A DNA stretch of 54,237 nucleotides from a virus (IMGVR_UViG_3300030250_000026), one strand, 5' to 3'; positions 10,788-49,373 are shown, numbered from the stretch's first letter. The notes: generated by a model from the letters alone, not told the origin. Translations and numbers: made by a program.

Positions 10788-11927
10788 ATGGCAAAGAAAG
10801 ATTGGAGCGAGATGGAAGGATTGCCATGGCGGCTTGATGTAGGCTCGACATTGGAAGAGGCCATGCAGTCGGAGAACGGTCAGATGCTGTATGTAACGAA
10901 AGATGGCCAAATAGTGATGAATGGTGAGGTGATAGCCAATGATGCTGTACATTACCTTGGCAGTTATTCACTTTCTTCGGGAGGCGAAAATGCCGCAAAA
11001 CAGCTGTCGGTAAATTGCTTTACGAAGCCAATACTGCACTATACCATAACGGGCAATAATAATTTGACAGCGTTGGTGCGCCAGGTGCGTACGAACAATA
11101 CGAATGTGCGTCAGTGGCTGAGGCTCGGTGCTACGCTATACTACCGTGATGTGACGATGAACAACGACTTTAGTCAGGCTACATCATGCACATCGTGGAC
11201 GAGGTTGCCGGAGTATGACTCTACGGTGGACAGCCGCATCACCAAGAACCGTTCGGACATTGCTGACAACATACAGAAAGTCAATGCAAACACAAAACGT
11301 TTAGACGGTATAGATGGTGCGATAGAGTCATTTGGCGAGAGCATTACAGACCAAGCCTTGCGCATATATAACCTGGAGCACGGCAAACCATTGGCTACCC
11401 AATTGGCACCAGGCTTTATGAGCGCAGAAGACAAGGTAAAGGTGGACACGCTGAACGGTGGCATTGCGCAGCAGAAGGACGGCAGTTATAAGACATTGAC
11501 TGGCAAGGCCGTCATTGAGACGCACTCCGACGTGGTGGGAGAGGAGGTGAGTTTGACAGACTTTAATAACGCCCAAGCCACTACCTACAATAAAGGTGAT
11601 GTGATAAACCTATACTATACCAAGGGTGCCTATGGTGTGCTTGCGCAAAAGGATATGCTATGGTTCGGCCGTCGCGTGGTGAGCAACGACAGCAGCAACG
11701 GCACGCTCGTGAAGTATGACTTTAAGACTATTGCCGGTGTGGAGCCTAAAGATGCGTTTAACAGTGACATTACTCTGTACTTCTTGACACTCAAGGGTTA
11801 TACATCTGCCTTTAGGGGTAGTGCTGGTTATACATTGTACCCATTGAATGTAAGTGCAGTGCCCTACTTGCCATCAACAGCAGACAAGGTGCTGCTTGAA
11901 AAGATAAAACAGAAACTTGGATTATGA
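10788..11927 (+). CDS. Fibre/receptor-binding candidate (shared N-terminal module, distinct C-terminus)
   Basis: 379 aa. N-terminal ~50 aa are paralogous to the 9164 product. The rest is beta-rich and unrelated. Confidence 0.45.
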   Translation: MAKKDWSEMEGLPWRLDVGSTLEEAMQSENGQMLYVTKDGQIVMNGEVIANDAVHYLGSYSLSSGGENAAKQLSVNCFTKPILHYTITGNNNLTALVRQVRTNNTNVRQWLRLGATLYYRDVTMNNDFSQATSCTSWTRLPEYDSTVDSRITKNRSDIADNIQKVNANTKRLDGIDGAIESFGESITDQALRIYNLEHGKPLATQLAPGFMSAEDKVKVDTLNGGIAQQKDGSYKTLTGKAVIETHSDVVGEEVSLTDFNNAQATTYNKGDVINLYYTKGAYGVLAQKDMLWFGRRVVSNDSSNGTLVKYDFKTIAGVEPKDAFNSDITLYFLTLKGYTSAFRGSAGYTLYPLNVSAVPYLPSTADKVLLEKIKQKLGL

Positions 11928-12313
11928 CAGACCTGATACAGACTATCAGTTCTATTGTGACAGGTGTGGCGATACCGGTGCTCGGTGTATTCTTGTTCTA
12001 TGATGCGAAGAAACGTGAGGCTTCTGCCAGGGCCGGTAAGGCAGAGGCAGACAACATTACGCAGTATGCTGCCCAATGGCAGAAGTTGTATGAAGAGAAG
12101 GTGAAGCACGAAGAGGAACTGAATGAGAAGATTGATGCGCTATATGTGCAGCTTAATGAGCAACGCGATGAACTTGCGCGACTTAAAAAGGAGATGGCAG
12201 AACTGATGGTGAAGCAGCAGTATGCGGAGAGCCAGAAGTGTACGGTGTTTGGCTGCCCCAACCGCCAGCCGCCTCAACTTGTGTGTGCAAGTAGTAATCA
12301 CCCAGAACAATAG
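11924..12313 (+). CDS. N-terminal TM + coiled-coil protein (holin/i-spanin-like)
   Basis: TM segment LIQTISSIVTGVAIPVLGVFLFY followed by a long charged coiled coil. First gene of the lysis cassette. Confidence 0.45.
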   Translation: MTDLIQTISSIVTGVAIPVLGVFLFYDAKKREASARAGKAEADNITQYAAQWQKLYEEKVKHEEELNEKIDALYVQLNEQRDELARLKKEMAELMVKQQYAESQKCTVFGCPNRQPPQLVCASSNHPEQ

Positions 12314-12317
12314 GACT

Positions 12318-12590
12318 ATGAGATTGACGAGATATATCACGGAATTGATACGTGTGGACAGTGGGCATAGCAGCAAGGCGTTTTTCCTTGTGATGGTGAC
12401 GATTGTTGGCAGTGTGTTGCTTCTTTGCGCGGCGTTTGTGCTGGCATGGGAGGTTGTGAGCACTGGCACTATACATACGGATTTAGTGGGACTGAGCGCA
12501 TTTGTGGGCAGTGTGGCAAGTTTGTTTGCAACAGCTGGTATCACAAAGGTGTGCAGTGAACGGAAAGAAAAGAAATGCGAGTATGAATGA
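12318..12590 (+). CDS. Small two-TM membrane protein (holin candidate)
   Basis: ATG at 12318 (the ORF track extends upstream to 12222). Two hydrophobic segments, AFFLVMVTIVGSVLLLCAAFVLAW and LSAFVGSVASLFATAGI, plus a charged tail. Confidence 0.5.
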   Translation: MRLTRYITELIRVDSGHSSKAFFLVMVTIVGSVLLLCAAFVLAWEVVSTGTIHTDLVGLSAFVGSVASLFATAGITKVCSERKEKKCEYE

Positions 12591-13188
12591 TTGGATAGGT
12601 GGTTACAATTCTGTGTTCAAGTGTCTTGGCGGGAGAGGTCATGGGCAGGAGGAACGCGAGGTGAACGACTATTATGCGACAGACCCGATGGCGGTAGATT
12701 ATCTTGTTGAGAATAATTTGTTGCCAGATTGTATATGGGAATGTGCTTGTGGTGAAGGGCATCTGAGTAGAAGGCTTGAAGAAGAAGGATATGATGTGTA
12801 TAGTTCGGACTTGGTGGACCGTGGATATGGTGTAAGCGGGGTGGACTTTTTGAAGGCTGATGAGAAGCCTTCTGACAAGATAAAATGTATAGTTACCAAT
12901 CCACCCTATAAATATGCCACGGAGTTTGTGCTGCACGCAATAGACATTCTTAAGCCCGGCGACAAGATTTTCATGTTCCTTAAGACGACATTTCTTGAAG
13001 GCCGGAGAAGGAAAGAAATGCTTTTTGACCGTTTCCCGCCAAAGACAATCTACCAATTCAGCGGAAGAGTTGCCTGTGCAAAGAATGGAGATTTTGGAAA
13101 GATGAAGAAGATTGGAAGTGCTGTTGCTTATGCTTGGTACGAGTGGGAGATTGGTTCGTATGGCACGACAGCACTCAAATGGATATAA
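12583..13188 (+). CDS. Orphan N6-adenine DNA methyltransferase
   Basis: Motif I-like WECACGEGH and motif IV TNPPY. ATG at 12583 overlaps the upstream stop (ATGAATGA). No adjacent nuclease. Confidence 0.7.
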   Translation: MNDWIGGYNSVFKCLGGRGHGQEEREVNDYYATDPMAVDYLVENNLLPDCIWECACGEGHLSRRLEEEGYDVYSSDLVDRGYGVSGVDFLKADEKPSDKIKCIVTNPPYKYATEFVLHAIDILKPGDKIFMFLKTTFLEGRRRKEMLFDRFPPKTIYQFSGRVACAKNGDFGKMKKIGSAVAYAWYEWEIGSYGTTALKWI

Positions 13189-13203
13189 CACAATATAATA
13201 TAG

Positions 13204-13719
13204 ATGGAAAGTTGGAAAGAATTAGCGGCATTTGTGCTGGAGCGCGAGGGCGGCTATGTTAATAATAAGGCCGACAAGGGAGGACCTACGAACAAGGGCG
13301 TGACATTAGCGACCTACCGAAGTGTGTATGGACAGCACAAGACGGTTGAGGACTTGAAACGCATTACTGATGCGGAGTGGGAGTACATTTTTAAGAAATT
13401 CTACTGGTACAAGTGCAAGGCTGACTACATACAGGACAAGAGTGTGGCCTTTATTCTTGTGGACTGGGCCTATAACAGCGGAGTCAAGACGGCCGTAACG
13501 CACTTGCAGCGGATAGTTAAGACTACTGCCGACGGCATCATGGGCAAGCAGACCTTGCAGGCGGTAAATACGCGTAGTCCGCTGCCATTGTTCGGGGCGT
13601 TGAAGCAGGACAGAATAGCTTTTTACAAGGCAAGAGCTGCCAAGAATCCGAGTCAGAAGGTGTTCTTGAAGGGGTGGCTAAATCGGGTGAGCCATTTCGC
13701 GTATGGCAAGTTCGTTTGA
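13204..13719 (+). CDS. Endolysin, GH108-type muramidase with PG_binding_3-like C-terminus
   Basis: The N-terminal signature LEREGGYVNNKADKGGPTNKGVT matches the EGGY...D.GG.T..G motif of glycoside hydrolase family 108 lysins. Confidence 0.8.
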   Translation: MESWKELAAFVLEREGGYVNNKADKGGPTNKGVTLATYRSVYGQHKTVEDLKRITDAEWEYIFKKFYWYKCKADYIQDKSVAFILVDWAYNSGVKTAVTHLQRIVKTTADGIMGKQTLQAVNTRSPLPLFGALKQDRIAFYKARAAKNPSQKVFLKGWLNRVSHFAYGKFV

Positions 13720-13730
13720 ACAAAAACGAA

Positions 13731-13760
13731 ACTGCCACACGAAAAAACTCGTGCGGCAGT
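13731..13760 (+). terminator. Hairpin after the endolysin gene
   Basis: ACTGCCACACG / CGTGCGGCAGT stem (one mismatch). No clear T-run. Confidence 0.35.
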
Positions 13761-13835
13761 TAAGTGCTTCTTTTAGGATGTGCCCTTTTTATATATTAAT
13801 TAAACACTGCAAAGATAACAAATATAATCAAGAAT

Positions 13836-14312
13836 ATGCGTAGAATTAGTGGTTTTTTAATCGTAATTATCTGTGCAGTTGTCTTGCACAGCAGTTGCGC
13901 GCGCAAGGTGGTGCAGAGCATGGAGCGCACGCACGACGCGCTGATAGTGTATAAGACCGACAGTGTGATGGTGCGCGATACGATTGTGACAGTTTCCAAT
14001 TTGGAAACAGTGGACAGCGTGGCGGAGCGCATGACTACCTATGTGGTGGTGGACACAGCTGGCAAGGTGCTGACGAAGTATGTGTATCGCGACAGAAGCG
14101 TATACCACAACAAGGACGCTCTTAGTGCGAGCAGTCATGTGTCATGCCGCGCACACCGCACAAACAGCACAAGCCACAAGGCTACGGTGCGTGATGCGGT
14201 GACAAGGGTTGAGAAGCCTCCTGCAAGGTGGAAGCTTCGGGCCGTTGGCGGTCTGATTATCATAGTAATATGCGTGTTGTTATATTACAACATATATAGT
14301 AAGTATAAGTGA
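13836..14312 (+). CDS. Lipoprotein with C-terminal TM anchor (unimolecular-spanin candidate)
   Basis: Signal peptide plus lipobox (VVLHSSC) at the N-terminus and a TM segment LRAVGGLIIIVICVLLYY at the C-terminus. Adjacent to the endolysin. Confidence 0.5.
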   Translation: MRRISGFLIVIICAVVLHSSCARKVVQSMERTHDALIVYKTDSVMVRDTIVTVSNLETVDSVAERMTTYVVVDTAGKVLTKYVYRDRSVYHNKDALSASSHVSCRAHRTNSTSHKATVRDAVTRVEKPPARWKLRAVGGLIIIVICVLLYYNIYSKYK

Positions 14313-14332
14313 TTTTGTTGGGTTGTTTGTTT

Positions 14333-14385
14333 GGCAAGCATGGGCGCATGGTGATGTGTTCCGTGCTTGCCTTTGTGCTTATTTA
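14333..14385 (+). terminator. Intrinsic terminator
   Basis: GGCAAGCATGG / CCGTGCTTGCC stem (one G-U pair) followed by a T-rich run TTTGTGCTTATTTATTT. Confidence 0.6.
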
Positions 14386-14410
14386 TTTACAACGAAATTA
14401 CTTATGAACA

Positions 14411-14704
14411 ATGGAACAATTACAACAGATTTTTGATTGTGCAGTTGAAGCCGTGATGCAAGCCAGCGGCCTTGACTTTGATGCGCTTGCTAATTGTCGC
14501 TCGGAGCGGTGTGTGGTGGCGCGCGTGGTGCTTGTGGACGTGCTGATGGAGCTTGGTATGAGCGAAGGGGATATTGCATTCCTAAGCGGCATGAGTCAGC
14601 AGAGAGTTAACTCGCTTAAGAATAGTGCGAGGTACAGGCTAAAGGGACTGGCTGCACGGGTGATGAGGGAGGAGGTGAGGAAATCCGTTTCCTTGCCAAT
14701 ATGA
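14411..14704 (+). CDS. Small HTH DNA-binding protein (sigma-70 region-4 / DnaA-C-like)
   Basis: MSEGDIAFLSGMSQQRVNSLKNSARYRLKGL fits the region-4 type HTH pattern. 97 aa. Confidence 0.45.
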   Translation: MEQLQQIFDCAVEAVMQASGLDFDALANCRSERCVVARVVLVDVLMELGMSEGDIAFLSGMSQQRVNSLKNSARYRLKGLAARVMREEVRKSVSLPI

Positions 14705-14706
14705 GT

Positions 14707-14734
14707 AAAGGCCACCTGGATTTGGTGGCCTTTT
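14707..14734. terminator. Bidirectional terminator between convergent genes
   Basis: AAAGGCCACC-TGGATTT-GGTGGCCTTT, a perfect 10-bp stem flanked by A and T runs. Confidence 0.7.
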
Positions 14735-14736
14735 GC

Positions 14737-15048
14737 TTATGATTGGTTAATTGGTTGATAGTGTTGTATGTAATCCTTAAATCTGATTGCTTGACTTTTT
14801 AAGATGTTGGAAAAAGACAATGTTTCTCGCAGTTTGTCAAGCCCATAGTTGTCAATAAAACGTCCGACACAAGGGTTGAGCAGTAAAGATGGTATTGCTT
14901 CAACATCACTCATGTCTAATTTGACAGGCTCTCCTTGTTGTATTTTATCTATCATGATACAATACAACTCTTCTCCTGCTTTTCTGTAATCCTTTGTTCT
15001 CGCAAGGATTGTTGATACTTTAATTGTACACATAATATCAAAAATCAA
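14737..15048 (-). CDS. STAS-like (DUF4325-type) small protein, partner of the GHKL ATPase
   Basis: About 100 aa. Pattern PVKLDMSDVEAIPSLLLNPCVGRF resembles the STAS-like V.LDF.GV core. TTG start at 15048, or ATG at 15033 just 4 nt after the upstream stop. AT-rich. Confidence 0.5.
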   Translation of the reverse strand: MIFDIMCTIKVSTILARTKDYRKAGEELYCIMIDKIQQGEPVKLDMSDVEAIPSLLLNPCVGRFIDNYGLDKLRETLSFSNILKSQAIRFKDYIQHYQPINQS

Positions 15049-15895
15049 AGTCGGTTAATATATCTTCTTCTTCTAAATTTTGAGTATCAATGTCGAAATC
15101 AATAAGTGTTCCCGTAAAATTGAAGTCGGTTTGTGAGATATGCTGCATTCCGTCTATTTTTACGAGGCAAGCTCCCTTGCTAAATAGTCTTACATTATCT
15201 GAGTTTGTTAAGATATTGTCTAAGCCAAACCCTCTGTTGTTCTGTTGCGATTGAACAGTAAAGTTCTTCTTGATTGCAATTTCAAGTGCTTCTTTGTCAT
15301 TCGTTTCGTTTCCAAGAAATGCCCTTACAGAAGAAGGTATAGATATTCCGAAGTCACATATTGCTACATTTATCTTACCATTTTTCTGATTGTAATATAT
15401 AACACTAAAAGCATTGCCATTTGCTTGTGCATGGTCAAACACATTGTTATAGGCTTCAGCAAGGCACGTTGATATAGGCGTGTAGTCTTTATCCTTGCCT
15501 ATTGTGTTCTTAAAGTATTTAGTTACTTCACTCGCAAATATGTCTTTTTCGTCATCTTTTATTTTCCATAAACTAAAGATGTCTTTTTCAGTGCTTAATG
15601 CGTGTCTAAAACCTAATCTCCAATAGGTTGAGAAACCGCAAGTGTCGCAAACATACTGACACACATCTTTATTATCCCGAGAGATACTAACTGGGAAATT
15701 CTTGTCTACGAAGAATTGTACCAAACAAGCAAGCGAAGCTAAATGGAAAGGTTTAAGCTCGTGTGGAAGTATTTCGCTGGAGAAATCTATAACTACCTCT
15801 TCTCCAGAAGTGCTGTTACAATGCAAATTCACAAACGAAGCAATATTACGAACCCACCTAACTTTGTCCGCTTTGTCGAATAAGATATGAATCAT
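15038..15895 (-). CDS. GHKL-fold ATPase/kinase (SpoIIAB/RsbW-like) with an unknown N-terminal domain
   Basis: N-box AYNNVFDHAQAN, G1-like AICDFGISIP, G2 NRGFGLDN. Likely ATG at 15895 (the ORF track extends to 15988). AT-rich: 17/60 G+C at 15061-15120. Confidence 0.65.
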   Translation of the reverse strand: MIHILFDKADKVRWVRNIASFVNLHCNSTSGEEVVIDFSSEILPHELKPFHLASLACLVQFFVDKNFPVSISRDNKDVCQYVCDTCGFSTYWRLGFRHALSTEKDIFSLWKIKDDEKDIFASEVTKYFKNTIGKDKDYTPISTCLAEAYNNVFDHAQANGNAFSVIYYNQKNGKINVAICDFGISIPSSVRAFLGNETNDKEALEIAIKKNFTVQSQQNNRGFGLDNILTNSDNVRLFSKGACLVKIDGMQHISQTDFNFTGTLIDFDIDTQNLEEEDILTDFDF

Positions 15896-15961
15896 GTTGC
15901 AAAGGTACAACTGCAAGTTACATTTTCCAAATAAATTAACAATTATTGGTGCAGAGTTGGG

Positions 15962-16013
15962 CACAAGCAACTCACAAGCAACAAACAAAACTCACAAGCA
16001 ACTCACAAGCAAC
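15962..16013. repeat. Four copies of CACAAGCAAC in a divergent intergenic region
   Basis: Copies at 15962-71, 15973-82, 15993-16002 and 16004-13. Confidence 0.85.
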
Positions 16014-16073
16014 TTGTCATCACCTTTGCGCTATCGGGGGATATTCCCCGACCGACTTAATACATTCATAATT

Positions 16074-16907
16074 ATGGACAATGTAGAGAAAGTAATCTGT
16101 TGCGACAGAGGTAATGATGCGCTCGCTTATGCAGCAATGGCGAACAACAAGGGCAATGACCCTATGGCACTGGCTGCTATGATGAACGGCGGCCTTGGAG
16201 GTGCCAATCAGTGGTTGAACAATCCGTTTTTGTACCTTATTTTTCTTGCCATGTTCGGTGGCAATGGCTTCGGGTTTGGCAACAACCGCAATGGTCTGCA
16301 AGATGCCGAGATACAGAGCCAAATCCAATCTTTGCGCTCGCAGATGGCGGACAACCACAACTCCGACCTGTTAATGCAAGCTATCAAGGGCAATAACGAT
16401 GCATTGACTACATTGGGCGCAAACCTTAATTGCGACTTCAACCAGTTGCAGCAAGGCGTGTGTGCAGTTCGTTCCGCTATTGACAACGTAAGCGGCAAGG
16501 TAGGTTTCTCTGCCGAGCGCGTAATCAACGCAGCGGAGAAAGGTGATGCGGCAGTTATCCAGGCAATACAAAATTGCTGCTGCAACACACAAAACAACAT
16601 CACCAAGATGGGCTATGAGAACCAGCTCGCAATACAAGGACAGACCAACTCCTTGCAGCAGAGCCTCAACTTTGTCAACTCATCGGTGGAGCGCGGATTC
16701 AGCTCTGTTGGCTATCAGATGTCGCAGGACAAGTGCGATGTTATTCGTGCAGGACAGGACAACACGCAGCGCATAATTGATGCCTTGAACAACCATTGGT
16801 ATGCTGACATTGACCGCAAGTATCAAGACGCGAGATTGGAGCTGTCGCAGCAGAACCAGACTGCCGCACTGATTGCAGCTCTTGGCAAGACTACCGCCAC
16901 GGCATGA
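16074..16907 (+). CDS. Membrane-associated Q/N-rich coiled-coil protein (unknown function)
   Basis: ATG at 16074. Gly-rich hydrophobic segment FLYLIFLAMFGGNGFGFG followed by a long Q/N-rich helical region. The upstream part of the ORF-track ORF overlaps the repeat array. Confidence 0.5.
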   Translation: MDNVEKVICCDRGNDALAYAAMANNKGNDPMALAAMMNGGLGGANQWLNNPFLYLIFLAMFGGNGFGFGNNRNGLQDAEIQSQIQSLRSQMADNHNSDLLMQAIKGNNDALTTLGANLNCDFNQLQQGVCAVRSAIDNVSGKVGFSAERVINAAEKGDAAVIQAIQNCCCNTQNNITKMGYENQLAIQGQTNSLQQSLNFVNSSVERGFSSVGYQMSQDKCDVIRAGQDNTQRIIDALNNHWYADIDRKYQDARLELSQQNQTAALIAALGKTTATA

Positions 16908-17029
16908 AGAGGAGGTGTTTCCAAAACGGAAATAACCACTGATGACCATTCTATTGACGCCAACGAAAAGGTTGACAACAATACCTTTTTCGCGAGGTCT
17001 CGGAAGAGGTCGAAAGAGAAGTAATAACA

Positions 17030-17060
17030 AGCACGTGGGGAGGTGATTGCCCCACGTGCT
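17030..17060 (+). terminator. Perfect 11-bp hairpin AGCACGTGGGG/CCCCACGTGCT
   Basis: Seen directly. No T-run, so termination is uncertain. Confidence 0.35.
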
Positions 17061-17076
17061 ACTAACGATTGAAATC

Positions 17077-17559
17077 ATGCTATTCAAAGACGTAAAAATA
17101 GGCTACCCGATTTACTTTCTTGACAAGGAGGGCGCAAGATATTACCAAGGCAAAGCCGTGAGTGTTGCAGTTCCGCGCTACGACAATAGCCAAGCTAAGG
17201 CTTTTGGCGCGCAGCCGACTGGTCTTGTGGTAGACATAACCATAGAGGCAGATGGTGCGACCAAGACCTACACAATTCCAGAGACTGCAACAATAACGTA
17301 CGCAGGGCATCTTGTATTGTCAACAGACAATGAAGGAATACTAAGAGAGGTCGAAGCACTTAAGGCTGCAAGCGAGGAGGCATTGTCACAGGTTGAGCGA
17401 CACAAGCAGATGGTTACAAATTGTAGTCAACTGATGGAGGAGCTTAATCCAGCCTTTGCCGAAAAGCGCGCGCAAGACAAGCGGATTGAGGGCATTGAAA
17501 ACGAGGTGAAGAGCCTTGGGGCTGTCCTTCGTGATTTTATAAACGAGTTCAAAAAATGA
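17077..17559 (+). CDS. Hypothetical protein with C-terminal coiled coil
   Basis: ATG at 17077, after the hairpin. 160 aa. Confidence 0.5.
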   Translation: MLFKDVKIGYPIYFLDKEGARYYQGKAVSVAVPRYDNSQAKAFGAQPTGLVVDITIEADGATKTYTIPETATITYAGHLVLSTDNEGILREVEALKAASEEALSQVERHKQMVTNCSQLMEELNPAFAEKRAQDKRIEGIENEVKSLGAVLRDFINEFKK

Positions 17560-17912
17560 TGATTATGGGAAGATTATATATGGTGTTTTGCAAGGGTGGT
17601 GGCAAGTGCAAGCACTTCGACAAGGAGAGTGCAGAGAAGGCTGTCAGCCGCATATACTACACGACTAAGGACGGCACAGAGCATCACGGGCCGCACTGGA
17701 GCCTGGAGCAGGTGCTTGAAGCCACGAAAGGGTTGCAGTTTAAGCCTTGTGTGACGGATTACGACAAGTATGTAGCGTTTAACGCTGCTTATGCCGACTT
17801 GTGCAAGACGTTGACGCCAGACTTGATTATAGAGACAGGTCATGCGTTTTTCTTTGAAGATGAAGATGCGCCCTGCAATAAGATATGGATATACATGGAG
17901 AGTTTTGAGTAA
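17556..17912 (+). CDS. Hypothetical Cys-containing protein
   Basis: 118-aa ORF whose start overlaps the upstream stop. Confidence 0.5.
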   Translation: MMIMGRLYMVFCKGGGKCKHFDKESAEKAVSRIYYTTKDGTEHHGPHWSLEQVLEATKGLQFKPCVTDYDKYVAFNAAYADLCKTLTPDLIIETGHAFFFEDEDAPCNKIWIYMESFE

Positions 17913-17941
17913 AAAAAGCGTGACACATCGTCACGCTTTTT
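17911..17941 (+). terminator. Intrinsic terminator
   Basis: A7-GCGTGAC-ACATC-GTCACGC-T5. Confidence 0.75.
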
Positions 17942-18036
17942 GCTCTAATATAATGCCGTTCAGATATAAATTTATAAATTTGTTGCGTCTGTTAGGCATA
18001 GCGATATGTCCATTGCCTTGTAGTGAGTCTTTATCA

Positions 18037-19230
18037 CTACTTTTGGCTAAAAACATAATCCATCAATTTTTCATTTGCTTCGTTTATCAACGAGAAGTCC
18101 TTCTTTATGTATAGATTAGTGACTCTCATTCTCTCGTCGATATGGCATAGCATGTCATTGACTATATATAATGGTATGCGTACATCATTTGCTGCAATAG
18201 TTGCCATAGAATGCCTGGCAGAGTAAAATTGCAATTTCTCAATTCCGAGAGCATTGCCAATTATCTTCAATCCCTTGTTTAATGCAACGTTGAAATTGCT
18301 TGGCGTGCTGTATCTTTCGGAGAAATTAAACATAGTACCGGCATTCCCTTTTGACACGTATTTTTTCATTAGTGGCTTTATGTTCTCTGGTACAATTATT
18401 TCCATTAGCGCATTGTCGCTCCTTCGGTCGCGTGTTTTCGTCCTATTATACCTTATCCGTTGTCCATCATAATCCGTCACGCTGTATAGGTCTACTGCAT
18501 TCATGCCCATCAAACAGAATGATATGATAAAGCAGTCCCTTGCGATTATTTCTCTTTCAGATTTTCCAGTATAATTGTAAATGGCTCTTATCTGTTCAAC
18601 AGTCAAGGCCCTCTTTTCTGCTACGTTCTGTTTTTTCGGTTTATAGCTATGAAGTGTTTTCTTTATTTTAATGTCATCGTTGTCGTAATCATTGTAGAAC
18701 TCTCGCGCATCTTGGAAAATCTTCATGATGGAAGATGTGTATAGTGACATTGCACGTGGCTTATCGGAGAGTGACCGCTCCCACTCTCGCATCATCTGTT
18801 CGCTAAACTCACTGCAATATATAACTCGTCTACCGAAGAACTTGCATAGTGCATTTATTGCGGATTTGTAGTTGCGTATGCCTTTTAGGTCATTGTGTTC
18901 GTTTACCCATCTCTCGGCATACTTGATGAAGTTTATACTTTCTCCTTCATCTTTTTGTTTGAGTTTTTCCACAATCGTGTCAAAGGGTACATCATTCACT
19001 TCAAGATACAACCCTTCAATCTTTTTCCGTAGTTTGCTGATAATGTCATTACCACGTTCGAGTACGTTGTTGTTCTTTATTTTGAGGGAAGAGGTCAAAT
19101 CTTTTTTACCTACAATCATAGTTGTCGGTAAATAGACGGTCTTTCGATTGTGTGAGAACCGGATAAAAACGACATACGTTTTATCTTCTCTCTGTCTGTC
19201 CTTCCGGACCATTAGTTTGAATGTAGCCAT
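18037..19230 (-). CDS. int: Tyrosine integrase (Bacteroides-type, with N-terminal arm-binding domain)
   Basis: 397 aa. N-terminus MATFKLMVRKDRQREDKTYVVFIRFSHNRK. C-terminal catalytic region SARHSMAT...MLCHIDERMRVTNLY (R-H-R-Y type). Adjacent to the attP. Confidence 0.85.
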   Translation of the reverse strand: MATFKLMVRKDRQREDKTYVVFIRFSHNRKTVYLPTTMIVGKKDLTSSLKIKNNNVLERGNDIISKLRKKIEGLYLEVNDVPFDTIVEKLKQKDEGESINFIKYAERWVNEHNDLKGIRNYKSAINALCKFFGRRVIYCSEFSEQMMREWERSLSDKPRAMSLYTSSIMKIFQDAREFYNDYDNDDIKIKKTLHSYKPKKQNVAEKRALTVEQIRAIYNYTGKSEREIIARDCFIISFCLMGMNAVDLYSVTDYDGQRIRYNRTKTRDRRSDNALMEIIVPENIKPLMKKYVSKGNAGTMFNFSERYSTPSNFNVALNKGLKIIGNALGIEKLQFYSARHSMATIAANDVRIPLYIVNDMLCHIDERMRVTNLYIKKDFSLINEANEKLMDYVFSQK

Positions 19231-19272
19231 ATTGTCTGTTTGTTATGCCCGAAGGCAAAGTTAATAATGAAT

Positions 19273-19305
19273 TGGAAAACATTTGGAAAACATTTGGAAA
19301 ACATT
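19273..19305. repeat. Three tandem 11-mers TGGAAAACATT (arm-type integrase site candidates)
   Basis: Exact copies at 19273-83, 19284-94 and 19295-305. Confidence 0.8.
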
Positions 19306-19410
19306 TTCGTTTTACAATCATATTCCAAACGTCACTTGTAAGCAATCTATTTTCTTTGTCCAGATAGTTTAACCATGACTACACGTGTAGAAAACCATTG
19401 ATAATCAACG

Positions 19411-19449
19411 AAAAACAGAGGATTGCTCGTAATGAACAATCCTCTGTTT
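19411..19449 (-). terminator. Intrinsic terminator placed directly after the tRNA-His 3' fragment
   Basis: 13-bp perfect inverted repeat AAACAGAGGATTG / CAATCCTCTGTTT. On the minus strand it follows CCA by 2 nt and ends in a T-run. Confidence 0.65.
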
Positions 19450-19451
19450 GG

Positions 19452-19496
19452 TGGGGTGCTTAGTGGGATTCGAACCCACGACATTCAGAACCACAA
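19452..19496 (-). other. attP core candidate: 3' portion of tRNA-His(GTG), from anticodon loop to CCA
   Basis: The reverse complement reads TTGTGGT (loop, anticodon GTG), TCTGA, ATGTC, GTGGG-TTCGAAT-CCCAC, TAAGCAC, C, CCA. There is no matching 5' half, so this is a fragment. Confidence 0.7.
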
Positions 19497-19559
19497 ACTA
19501 ATTAAAGGATTGTTGAATGCGTTGATTGTCATACGTTTTCCACTCTGTGTAGTGATTGA

Positions 19560-19580
19560 TGGAAAACATTTGGAAAACAT
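19560..19580. repeat. Two further tandem TGGAAAACAT(T) copies on the other side of the core
   Basis: Copies at 19560-70 and 19571-80, in the same orientation as the left-hand triplet. Confidence 0.8.
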
Positions 19581-19642
19581 GTTGGGGTATGTTATTGGGT
19601 TTATGAGGTAGTTATAATCTGAATGCTTGGGTTTGAGGGCTC

Positions 19643-20245
19643 TTATAATCTGGGGGCTTGGGTGGTTATTTGATGGTGATTGTATAATGCTTTGTCGCTG
19701 TCTGTGCGGTACCATTTGAGACCACGGGAATTGTAAATTATATTTGCTTCGCTCAGAATGCTTATTGGATAATAGCAATAATTCAAACCTGTTGCGCGAA
19801 AGGCTAAATAGGAGTTGTCTGATGGGATTGTGTTGCTGTATGATGGGGGACTTAATACGTTTATTTGCTCTCCAGCTCTCGCAATGTGGTCAAATTCTAA
19901 AGATTTACCATTGATATAAACAATGTCACCGGTCTTTAGTAACTTGTGCAGGTTGTGGCAATAACCTGTCTTGGGGTATCTGCATTTCCATATCAGTAGT
20001 CTGATGGGTTCTAATATCAAGAAATTTAGCAGGCACAGAATTGTAAGTATAACGAGTAGGCCCGCTATTGCGAATAATGGGCGACCGACTATGTCTAATA
20101 TGGTTGGTGGGTTTTCAATGAGGTCTTTAATTAAATAGTAAACTGGATAAAGAAAAAATAATCCCAATAATCCAATAACAAATATGGCGAACAGCACACC
20201 GGAAATGGCGGATAGTGCGGTAAGGCATATTTTTTTTGCTTTCAT
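19643..20245 (-). CDS. Three-TM membrane protein downstream of the repressor (lysogen-expressed exclusion candidate)
   Basis: 200 aa. Hydrophobic segments in the first ~95 aa, then a soluble C-domain. AT-rich. Same strand as the repressor and immediately downstream of it. Confidence 0.5.
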   Translation of the reverse strand: MKAKKICLTALSAISGVLFAIFVIGLLGLFFLYPVYYLIKDLIENPPTILDIVGRPLFAIAGLLVILTILCLLNFLILEPIRLLIWKCRYPKTGYCHNLHKLLKTGDIVYINGKSLEFDHIARAGEQINVLSPPSYSNTIPSDNSYLAFRATGLNYCYYPISILSEANIIYNSRGLKWYRTDSDKALYNHHQITTQAPRL

Positions 20246-21142: not shown

Positions 21143-21190
21143 ATTACCTATCAATATATTTGGTATACCTAAGGTATTACCTTATCTTTG
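21143..21190 (+). promoter_or_regulatory. Rightward early promoter with three operator-like boxes
   Basis: TTTG (21159-62), a 20-nt spacer, then TATCTTTG (21183-90) matches the Bacteroidota TTTG/TAnnTTTG consensus. Boxes ATTACCTA, TATACCTA and ATTACCTTA lie at 21143, 21164 and 21176. Confidence 0.55.
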
Positions 21191-49342: not shown

Positions 49343-49373
49343 TTTGCAATACATGTTGTAAAACATATTTTTG
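49343..49373 (+). promoter_or_regulatory. Rightward promoter TTTG-N19-TATTTTTG
   Basis: TTTG at 49343-46, a 19-nt spacer, and TATTTTTG at 49366-73. This is an exact fit to the Bacteroidota consensus. Confidence 0.6.

Follow-up and report, generated by a model that had tools for sequence, protein, structure and literature searches.

A phage-borne GHKL–STAS gene pair, a candidate toxin-less phospho-switch of the CapKS/VapKSC kind in a Bacteroidota temperate-phage hotspot

Two tightly coupled minus-strand genes, which we call K and S, lie in the viral sequence IMGVR_UViG_3300030250_000026, a stretch of 54,237 nucleotides (nt), the whole of which is referred to below as the window. An earlier note on this sequence had read the pair as a GHKL, anti-sigma-kinase-like ATPase with a STAS-like partner, a description borne out by a DUF4325 match of S, a SpoIIAB-like fold of K, and profile matches that relate K to VapK and S to VapS. 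We favour the explanation, and consider it fairly likely, that the two genes by themselves make up a phospho-switch like CapK/CapS and VapK/VapS, and that this switch is interchangeable cargo of a hotspot in a temperate phage of Bacteroidota. The evidence comes from profile comparison with known kinase–substrate pairs, from the pairing of the two genes in phages and genomes of several phyla, and from the slot that the cassette occupies in related phages.

Relationship of K and S to known kinase–substrate pairs

CapKS and VapKSC, first described in 2026, couple DNA-damage sensing to immune outputs through a GHKL kinase and its STAS substrate. In CapKS, single-stranded DNA (ssDNA) activates CapK, with the domain order helix-turn-helix (HTH), STAS, GHKL; a conserved STAS-domain serine of CapS (STAS followed by a winged HTH) is phosphorylated, and the adjacent immune operon is de-repressed (Chambers et al., EMBO J 2026, PMC13373217). 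CapK and CapS regulate CBASS, Bub, Thoeris and other immune operons, and the serine phosphorylation was shown directly for CapS (Chambers et al., 2026). For VapKSC, the inference is that VapK (STAS-GHKL) phosphorylates VapS, in which a C-terminal tail follows the STAS domain, and thereby sets the PIN toxin VapC free. The C-terminal helix of VapS (residues 94–116) extends to the VapC active site (PDB 9z7o, VapS-VapC), the kinase is activated by ssDNA via a conserved aromatic residue at the interface of N-domain and GHKL domain, and the system protected E. coli against phage Bas42 (Chambers et al., 2026).

A weak PDB match of S to "Escherichia VapS" (9z7o) gave the first lead to these relatives. 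S itself matches Pfam DUF4325 (E-value 6.2e-9, 35.9 bits), as does VapS of Rahnella bruchi (E-value 2.5e-17), whose operon (L056: VapK 298 amino acids (aa), VapS 116 aa, VapC-PIN 203 aa) is one of eight vapKSC operons that we recovered from genomes. The S-family profile aligned with VapS (9z7o_A) at an E-value of 9.7e-14 and placed Ser49 of S opposite Ser48 of VapS. In this column, the predicted phospho-acceptor, 38 of 42 distinct S sequences have Ser and the other 4 have Thr. For K, hhalign of the family against seven VapK sequences gave a probability of 99.7% and an E-value of 3.1e-25 over 263 columns, those of the N-domain among them, and a single VapK sequence also aligned with K. Indeed, the K profile matched VapK in all eight vapKSC loci (E-values 1e-17 to 1e-23), and the S profile matched VapS in all eight. 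The relationship is detected by profiles only, and BLASTP of S against Rahnella VapS returned no alignment. Because of these profile matches, K and S are identified, by sequence comparison, as remote homologues (pairwise identity ~18–22%) of the characterised kinase–substrate pair VapK/VapS.

The AlphaFold2 model of K (predicted local distance difference test (pLDDT) 83.6, predicted template modelling score 0.85) consists of an alpha/beta N-domain, a Bergerat-fold domain and a disordered tail, with pLDDT below 50 for residues 280–285. Foldseek aligned the C-domain with the SpoIIAB structures 1l0o, 1til, 1tid and 1thn (probability 1.00, TMt 0.68–0.72, root-mean-square deviation 3.4–3.9). All the motifs quoted in the earlier note were located exactly: the N-box AYNNVFDHAQAN at residues 148–159 (nt 15419–15454), the G1-like AICDFGISIP at residues 178–187 and the G2 motif NRGFGLDN at residues 220–227 of K, and the V.LD..DV core of S as VKLDMSDV at its residues 37–44. 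In K, the motif residues E147 and N151 (N-box), D181 and G183 (G1), and G222 and G224 (G2) are invariant among homologues. Judged by its motifs and its model, K carries a SpoIIAB-type GHKL domain in which the ATP-binding motifs are intact. Searches with the sequence of K gave a match to Pfam HATPase_c_2, the SpoIIAB/RsbW-type GHKL family (E-value 9.5e-5), and placed the full-length protein in the PHROGs family phrog_3364, whose function is unknown (E-value 1.5e-27). Nothing significant was found in NCBIfam, where the top match was TIGR01925 (spIIAB; E-value 0.078), and nothing meaningful in the PDB, by single sequence or by profile. The N-domain, which the earlier note had left unassignable at ~150 aa, is corrected to ~115–130 aa and is homologous to that of VapK. 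Modelled alone it reached a pLDDT of 85, and its residues W14, Y91, W92 and W110 are invariant in the homologue alignment. Its STAS label is taken from the homology to VapK and from the published description of that protein.

Could K be a GHKL ATPase other than a kinase, for example a chaperone-like or MORC/MutL-like protein with a role outside conflict and an incidental link to mobile elements? The top Foldseek E-values belong to Hsp90/TRAP1 N-domains, the Pfam kinase-type match stays below threshold, and many chromosomal copies lie amid housekeeping genes, all of which would fit. However, the Hsp90/TRAP1 matches have TMt values of 0.13–0.3 against ~0.7 for SpoIIAB, which gives the best compact superposition, and the gene for K is obligately paired with one for a STAS protein in which Ser or Thr is conserved at the phospho-site. 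K is also homologous to VapK, a relative of CapK, whose kinase activity was shown (Chambers et al., 2026), and its patchy, cassette-like distribution and deviant G+C content are not those expected for an incidental link. We regard a non-kinase role as highly improbable.

The likeness to VapKSC extends to architecture. K (285 aa against 298 aa in VapK) has the identical two-domain order with homology over the full length, S belongs to DUF4325 as VapS does, with its predicted phospho-serine aligned, and the kinase gene precedes the substrate gene in tight coupling. The earlier note had placed the ATG of S 4 nt past the TGA of K, and these coordinates were confirmed (the intervening nucleotides are tatt). 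Both are standalone mobile modules tied to phage conflict. Nevertheless, the VapC/PIN gene is absent here and from all K–S loci searched: a VapC hidden Markov model from the eight vapKSC loci had no match in the window, in 54 K–S loci, in 23 viral K–S loci or in 73 related phage loci. S, with 98 aa against 116 aa, lacks the C-terminal tail by which VapS inhibits VapC, and the profile match reaches no further than the STAS domain. Unlike the VapK–VapS pair, K–S is phage-borne and found mainly in Bacteroidota.

A further difference is that K has a conserved acidic, aromatic-ended C-terminal tail, whereas VapK has none. A strongly acidic C-terminal stretch was present in 47 of 48 distinct K proteins (the exception, L028, is apparently truncated), and the last residue is hydrophobic or aromatic in most of the acidic-tailed proteins. 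The tails of the homologues in Streptococcus phage LYGO9 and Burkholderia phage vB_E188 end in …EEEEEFEW and …DELDEEFSW, respectively. These tails resemble the C-terminal tips of SSB and T7 gp2.5, a likeness that we take as a lead, not a test.

With CapK/CapS the pair shares a GHKL kinase and a STAS substrate with a conserved serine. Homologues of K are nearly all 280–300 aa long, and the only fusions found were occasional HTH domains; among the few longer proteins, one (P0053) has an XRE-type HTH fused to its N-terminus, which gives the CapK-like order HTH, N-domain, GHKL. In two other loci, of one lineage, a separate XRE-type HTH gene ends 1 nt before the start of K (7748–7999 in L001 and 7733–7978 in L034). 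In contrast to CapK, K of the window has no HTH and begins directly at the N-domain; in contrast to CapS, S is a DUF4325 domain of 98 aa without a winged-helix DNA-binding domain. Nor does K–S stand upstream of an immune operon: it is followed by a terminator and then by a convergent backbone gene, and because the cassette ends at this terminator there is no downstream operon for it to regulate.

The third set of relatives, SpoIIAB/SpoIIAA/sigma-F and RsbW/RsbV/sigma-B, resembles K–S in the kinase-domain fold of K and in a STAS partner with a phosphorylatable Ser that opens helix 2. It differs in that K has an extra N-domain of ~115 aa and the acidic tail, and in that no sequence similarity of S to SpoIIAA or RsbV could be detected, the profile search of the PDB with S returning VapS only. 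In summary, K–S is a toxin-less, phage-borne variant of the CapKS/VapKSC kind, and it falls outside VapKSC, CapKS and the sigma partner-switching modules as currently defined. The earlier note had given no named defence system with this exact pair. Indeed, no PADLOC v2.0.0 model fits it, since S had no match in that database and K only a weak one, to the DrmA model PDLC02567 (E-value 2.1e-5); but named relatives do exist in CapK/CapS and VapK/VapS/VapC (Chambers et al., 2026).

Pairing and distribution of the two genes

Pairing was followed in 54 metagenomic and genomic K loci and in 23 viral loci, together ~75 K–S pairs. A homologue of S begins 3–84 nt after K in 52 of the 54 loci and in all 23 viral ones, and the two exceptions are degraded. 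The same two-gene unit is found in the Streptococcus phages LYGO9 and Javan and in Burkholderia phage vB_E188. In prophages of Streptococcus agalactiae and dysgalactiae the unit lies between lysin and integrase; in a P2-like phage of Burkholderia it has the integrase on one side and a BrnTA pair on the other. Francisella phage KIRK probably carries a K–S pair as well: an open reading frame (ORF) of 293 aa is followed there by a DUF4325 ORF of 112 aa, near the integrase (PMC7924643). Across phyla, K and S are coupled and inherited together.

The K profile matched 5,772 representatives at E-values below 1e-3 and 225 (50%-identity clusters) below 1e-30, and the species-level genomes that carry close relatives belong almost exclusively to Bacteroidota (among others Prevotella, Bacteroides, Alistipes, Flavobacteriia and Hymenobacter). 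On the side of S, the best 120 homologues listed all have 87–119 aa and DUF4325 alone, with no fusion seen. The genes around the pairs are mixed. They include integrases, AbiEii-like ATPases, RhuM, NERD, methylases, PDC-S05, AriA and mad3, and also rpoA/L17, TonB receptors and glycosidases. Clustering of the five genes on either side in the 54 loci yielded no conserved third gene, and no sigma factor or PP2C phosphatase is among the top 25 recurrent Pfam families listed for 260 neighbouring proteins. The earlier note had proposed a census of neighbourhoods; among chromosomal K–S loci, those with recognisable defence neighbours are a minority.

These neighbourhoods bear on classical partner switching, in which K would be an anti-sigma factor that holds a sigma factor or HTH regulator, such as the convergently encoded 97-aa protein, until unphosphorylated S releases it. 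The earlier note had suggested this logic, or the hijacking of a host sigma network, and had seen a sigma-region-4-like HTH in the convergent gene. The structure nearest to the C-domain of K is SpoIIAB, the top NCBIfam match (non-significant, as given above) is spIIAB, and S has a Ser at the antagonist position. Against this, no third gene is kept in the ~75 loci and neither sigma factor nor PP2C recurs beside them, while the N-domain of K is common to VapK and CapK and not to SpoIIAB. The hosts are moreover so diverse (Bacteroidota, Streptococcus, Burkholderia) that a lineage-specific sigma target is disfavoured. Partner switching therefore appears unlikely to us. As to the 97-aa ORF, we rejected it as a sigma-like partner: it belongs to the phage backbone, being present in 65 of 73 related phage loci, 61 of which are without K–S, and its product has no significant HTH or sigma-like match, XRE/controller-type HTH similarity reaching E-values of 0.13–1.2 only.

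Two departures from the usual pair were seen. In a Muricauda oceani prophage (L162, 6001–6291), an orphan S without K lies beside a RES-domain toxin and a patatin. In a widespread chromosomal locus (L163–L166, 5056–5934), K is split into ORFs of 154 aa and 120 aa upstream of an intact S.

The cassette and its hotspot

The phage that carries the pair is temperate. As the earlier note had it, K–S lies between the lysis genes and the integrase, the flanking genes being a GH108 endolysin (13204–13719) and a Bacteroidota-type tyrosine integrase (18037–19230), the latter separated from the pair by three other genes. In relatives with an empty slot (L067, L074), blastn showed window positions 14200–14705 and 15962–16399 to be contiguous, and since 14705 and 15962 adjoin in phages without the insert, the cassette can be delimited to the nucleotide (Table 1). 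Its G+C content of 36.0% contrasts with 48.5% and 48.7% on the two sides. A recount also reproduced exactly the local values of the earlier note, 17 of 60 at 15061–15120 and 36 of 60 at 14461–14520. That note had called the pair an AT-rich moron, and composition, borders and predicted promoter support a horizontally acquired, separately promoted moron of a temperate phage. Megablast of window positions 11000–20000 against deposited phages gave no match.

Table 1. Features of the K–S cassette and its flanks (window coordinates)
Feature	Position	Strand or orientation	Basis or remark
Whole inserted cargo cassette (hairpin, S, K, promoter)	14706..15961	-	blastn against empty-slot relatives; 1,256 bp
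K gene, 285 aa, VapK/CapK-like	15038..15895	-	ATG at 15895, TGA 15040-15038
K N-terminal alpha/beta domain, residues 1-115	15551..15895	-	hhalign to VapK N-domain; AlphaFold2
K GHKL (Bergerat-fold) domain, residues 134-271	15083..15496	-	Foldseek; N-box, G1 and G2 intact
K acidic C-tail with aromatic end (NLEEEDILTDFDF), predicted disordered	15041..15082	-	pLDDT; homologue comparison
S gene, 98 aa, DUF4325 STAS-like, putative phospho-substrate of K	14737..15033	-	ATG at 15033
S Ser49 codon, predicted phospho-acceptor	14887..14889	-	Aligned with VapS S48 (chain residue 66)
Cassette promoter/5' region	15896..15961	-	66 bp common to Panacea (L078) and HEPN (L093) cassettes of related phages
Predicted Bacteroidota-type promoter, TTTG-N20-TAccTTTG	15931..15900	-	Consensus search; ends 4 nt before K ATG
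Terminator hairpin, 10-bp stem, 7-nt loop	14707-14733	both/undirected	Inverted repeat I8, S-proximal cassette edge
97-aa ORF, backbone	14411..14704	convergent with K–S	Conserved in related phages
Tandem 11-nt repeats, CACAAGCAACT and variants	15962-16024		Upstream of 277-aa gene
277-aa backbone gene (p277), phrog_16490, function unknown	16074..16907		Downstream of 11-nt repeats

A scan for sigma-70 promoters and terminators is uninformative for Bacteroidota and was replaced by a search for TTTG-N19-21-TAnnTTTG together with folding. The full consensus occurs four times in the window against 0.59 expected, one occurrence being the predicted promoter of the cassette. Its position directly ahead of the start codon implies that the mRNA of K would be leaderless or nearly so. 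At the other edge, the hairpin folds with −24.1 kcal/mol on the plus strand (z −6.0) and −17.5 kcal/mol on the minus strand (z −3.5), energies that no shuffle reached for either strand. The earlier note had called it a bidirectional terminator. Folding on both strands agrees with this, but the T-tract is good on the plus strand only, and a consensus terminator scanner did not call the hairpin. By these sequence signals, the cassette has a predicted promoter and terminator of its own. Similar hairpins flank other cargo cassettes in related phages (L081, L065, L070), and since both hairpin and 66-bp promoter region are common to several cassettes, these have apparently been exchanged for one another within a shared frame of promoter and terminator.

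K–S is carried by 4 of 73 related IMG/VR phage loci, and in 8 the slot is empty. Elsewhere the slot holds a HigB-like toxin together with an HTH-Peptidase_M78 protein (PD-Lambda-2_B/RmrA-like), an HTH-M78 protein beside a partner of 161 aa, a SocA/Panacea protein, a trio that contains HEPN, a PDC-M64B-like protein (E-value 2.5e-46), or one of several small unknown gene sets. The cassette is exchangeable cargo in a slot that otherwise holds toxin–antitoxin or defence genes. Hotspots of P2 and P4 phages carry defence or toxin–antitoxin morons, and the present slot resembles them in exact insertion between conserved backbone genes, deviant G+C content, common flanks, and alternatives of toxin–antitoxin or defence type. 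It differs in that it belongs to a siphophage-like lineage of Bacteroidota that comes from metagenomes and is known from sequence alone. Across the related loci (L064–L136), the 14705|15962 junction between the 97-aa and 277-aa genes is a hypervariable hotspot with at least ~10 alternative gene sets.

The 11-nt repeats next to the cassette had been described as a repeat-filled divergent region that insulates the pair. They are real, but they are phage backbone and no partner of the pair: they also stand upstream of p277 in L067, L070, L073 and L074, with variable copy number and sequence, and we rejected them as part of the K–S module because they occur there in empty-slot phages. The repeats might serve as an operator or UP-like element.

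This setting bears on the idea that K–S, like CapKS, senses DNA damage and regulates neighbouring phage genes or prophage induction, and is not directed at other phages. CapK and CapS control adjacent operons in exactly this manner (Chambers et al., 2026), an XRE HTH is fused or coupled to some homologues of K, and the cassette adjoins the repeat-rich promoter region. But S and its 120 listed homologues are short DUF4325 proteins without a winged HTH, the terminator of the cassette faces a convergent gene, and both the repeats and the two flanking genes are conserved in phages without the cassette. Moreover, since only 4 of the 73 relatives carry K–S, it cannot be core to a lysis–lysogeny switch. 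We therefore consider a role in induction improbable.

Another possibility would be a counter-defence decoy, in which phage-borne S and K mimic host substrates (VapS, CapS) and kinases and so titrate or pre-empt switches of the CapKS or VapKSC type. K–S is homologous to immune-regulatory pairs and phage-borne in several phyla, and the orphan S of the Muricauda prophage would suit such a role. On the other hand, the pair is frequent in chromosomes, with many copies that have no recognisable phage or mobile-element genes nearby, and its slot, promoter and terminator are common with cargo of toxin–antitoxin or defence type and not with early anti-defence genes. CapKS and VapKSC are furthermore not known from Bacteroidota hosts, none being mentioned by Chambers et al. 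(2026). A decoy is in our judgement very unlikely.

Possible mode of action, and other features of the window

How would a phospho-switch of two genes, akin to CapK/CapS and VapK/VapS, work as phage cargo? In the lysogen, the promoter of the cassette would drive its transcription. K would bind S and, once triggered, phosphorylate it at Ser49; by analogy with VapK and CapK, the trigger would probably be ssDNA or DNA damage that arises when another phage infects. Phosphorylation would alter the binding partners of S. Because neither a toxin nor a DNA-binding domain is encoded in cis, the output would then be K itself, freed from an S that acts as antagonist or pseudosubstrate, or else a target protein encoded elsewhere. 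The acidic, aromatic-ended tail of K would be the likeliest extra functional element, either as an autoinhibitory ssDNA mimic or as a docking motif like the SSB C-terminus. The net role would most likely lie in inter-phage conflict, as exclusion, abortive infection or toxin–antitoxin-like addiction. The earlier note had proposed a lysogen-expressed sensor with an abortive-infection or exclusion role, which fits the context of a toxin–antitoxin and defence hotspot.

Several observations weigh against this explanation. No effector gene is recognisable in the K–S loci searched, and the output step is conjectural for that reason. The invariant Phe of VapK (F49 in Rahnella), which is probably the residue that stacks with ssDNA, is opposite E46 of K, a non-conserved position, and the trigger of K may therefore differ from that of VapK. 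In this column distant members of the K family do have Phe, and a conserved F50-H51 lies nearby in the subfamily of the window's K. In the profile searches that the earlier note had proposed (HATPase_c, DUF4325), S clears the gathering score of DUF4325 but K, with 22.9 bits, stays under the 27.4 of HATPase_c_2. A STAS nature of the N-domain of K was not confirmed in our structure and profile comparisons: Foldseek of the isolated domain against the PDB gave no significant match (the best by TM-score was the STAS protein TM1081, 2ka5, TMq 0.51, probability 0.35), and its hhalign comparison with the S family likewise fell short of significance. By the PADLOC and Pfam census, chromosomal K–S loci with recognisable defence neighbours are a minority and many lie amid housekeeping genes, so that the defence-island argument is weak outside phages. 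Finally, with an orphan S and a split K on record, the pair is not always intact.

A more specific, and tentative, possibility is that K–S is a complete kinase system without a separate effector. K would itself be the effector, phosphorylating phage or host proteins upon infection, or its tail (…EEEDILTDFDF) would engage the SSB interactome or ssDNA, and S would serve as antitoxin or pseudosubstrate. If true, this would be a kinase-based toxin–antitoxin or abortive-infection system, unlike VapKSC with its PIN nuclease toxin, and it would span prophage hotspots of Bacteroidota, Streptococcus and Burkholderia, with the pair in Francisella being probable. More generally, the sensor–substrate core of CapKS and VapKSC also circulates as a bare two-gene cassette without a recognisable effector, in a large family that includes cargo of prophage hotspots in gut Bacteroidota. 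Its output, once found, would reveal how such a minimal phospho-switch works alone. K–S would then also be a candidate for defence or exclusion in Bacteroidota, where few such systems have been tested, and the p97|p277 hotspot is a ready source of more candidate conflict genes.

In the PADLOC model PDLC02567 (DrmA of DISARM; 1,750 positions), the match to K covers positions 135–274, which correspond to the GHKL domain, with an N-terminal offset about as in K. From this match, some DrmA helicases may carry an N-terminal K-like sensor module.

Elsewhere in the window, an ORF upstream of the endolysin (12580–13188, plus strand) contains CIVTNPPYKY (NPPY) and a Gly-rich ACGEGHL, which are typical of N6-adenine/N4-cytosine DNA methyltransferases; it had no Pfam match at E-values below 0.01. 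Between the hotspot and the integrase (17556–17912, plus strand) lies a gene for a DUF7841 protein (E-value 6.3e-15) that is conserved in the related phages L007 and L009. Apart from the promoter of the cassette, the only full matches to the Bacteroidota promoter consensus are at 19715–19746, 21159–21190 and 49343–49373, all on the plus strand. The first two lie just past the integrase and may mark a lysogeny-control region.

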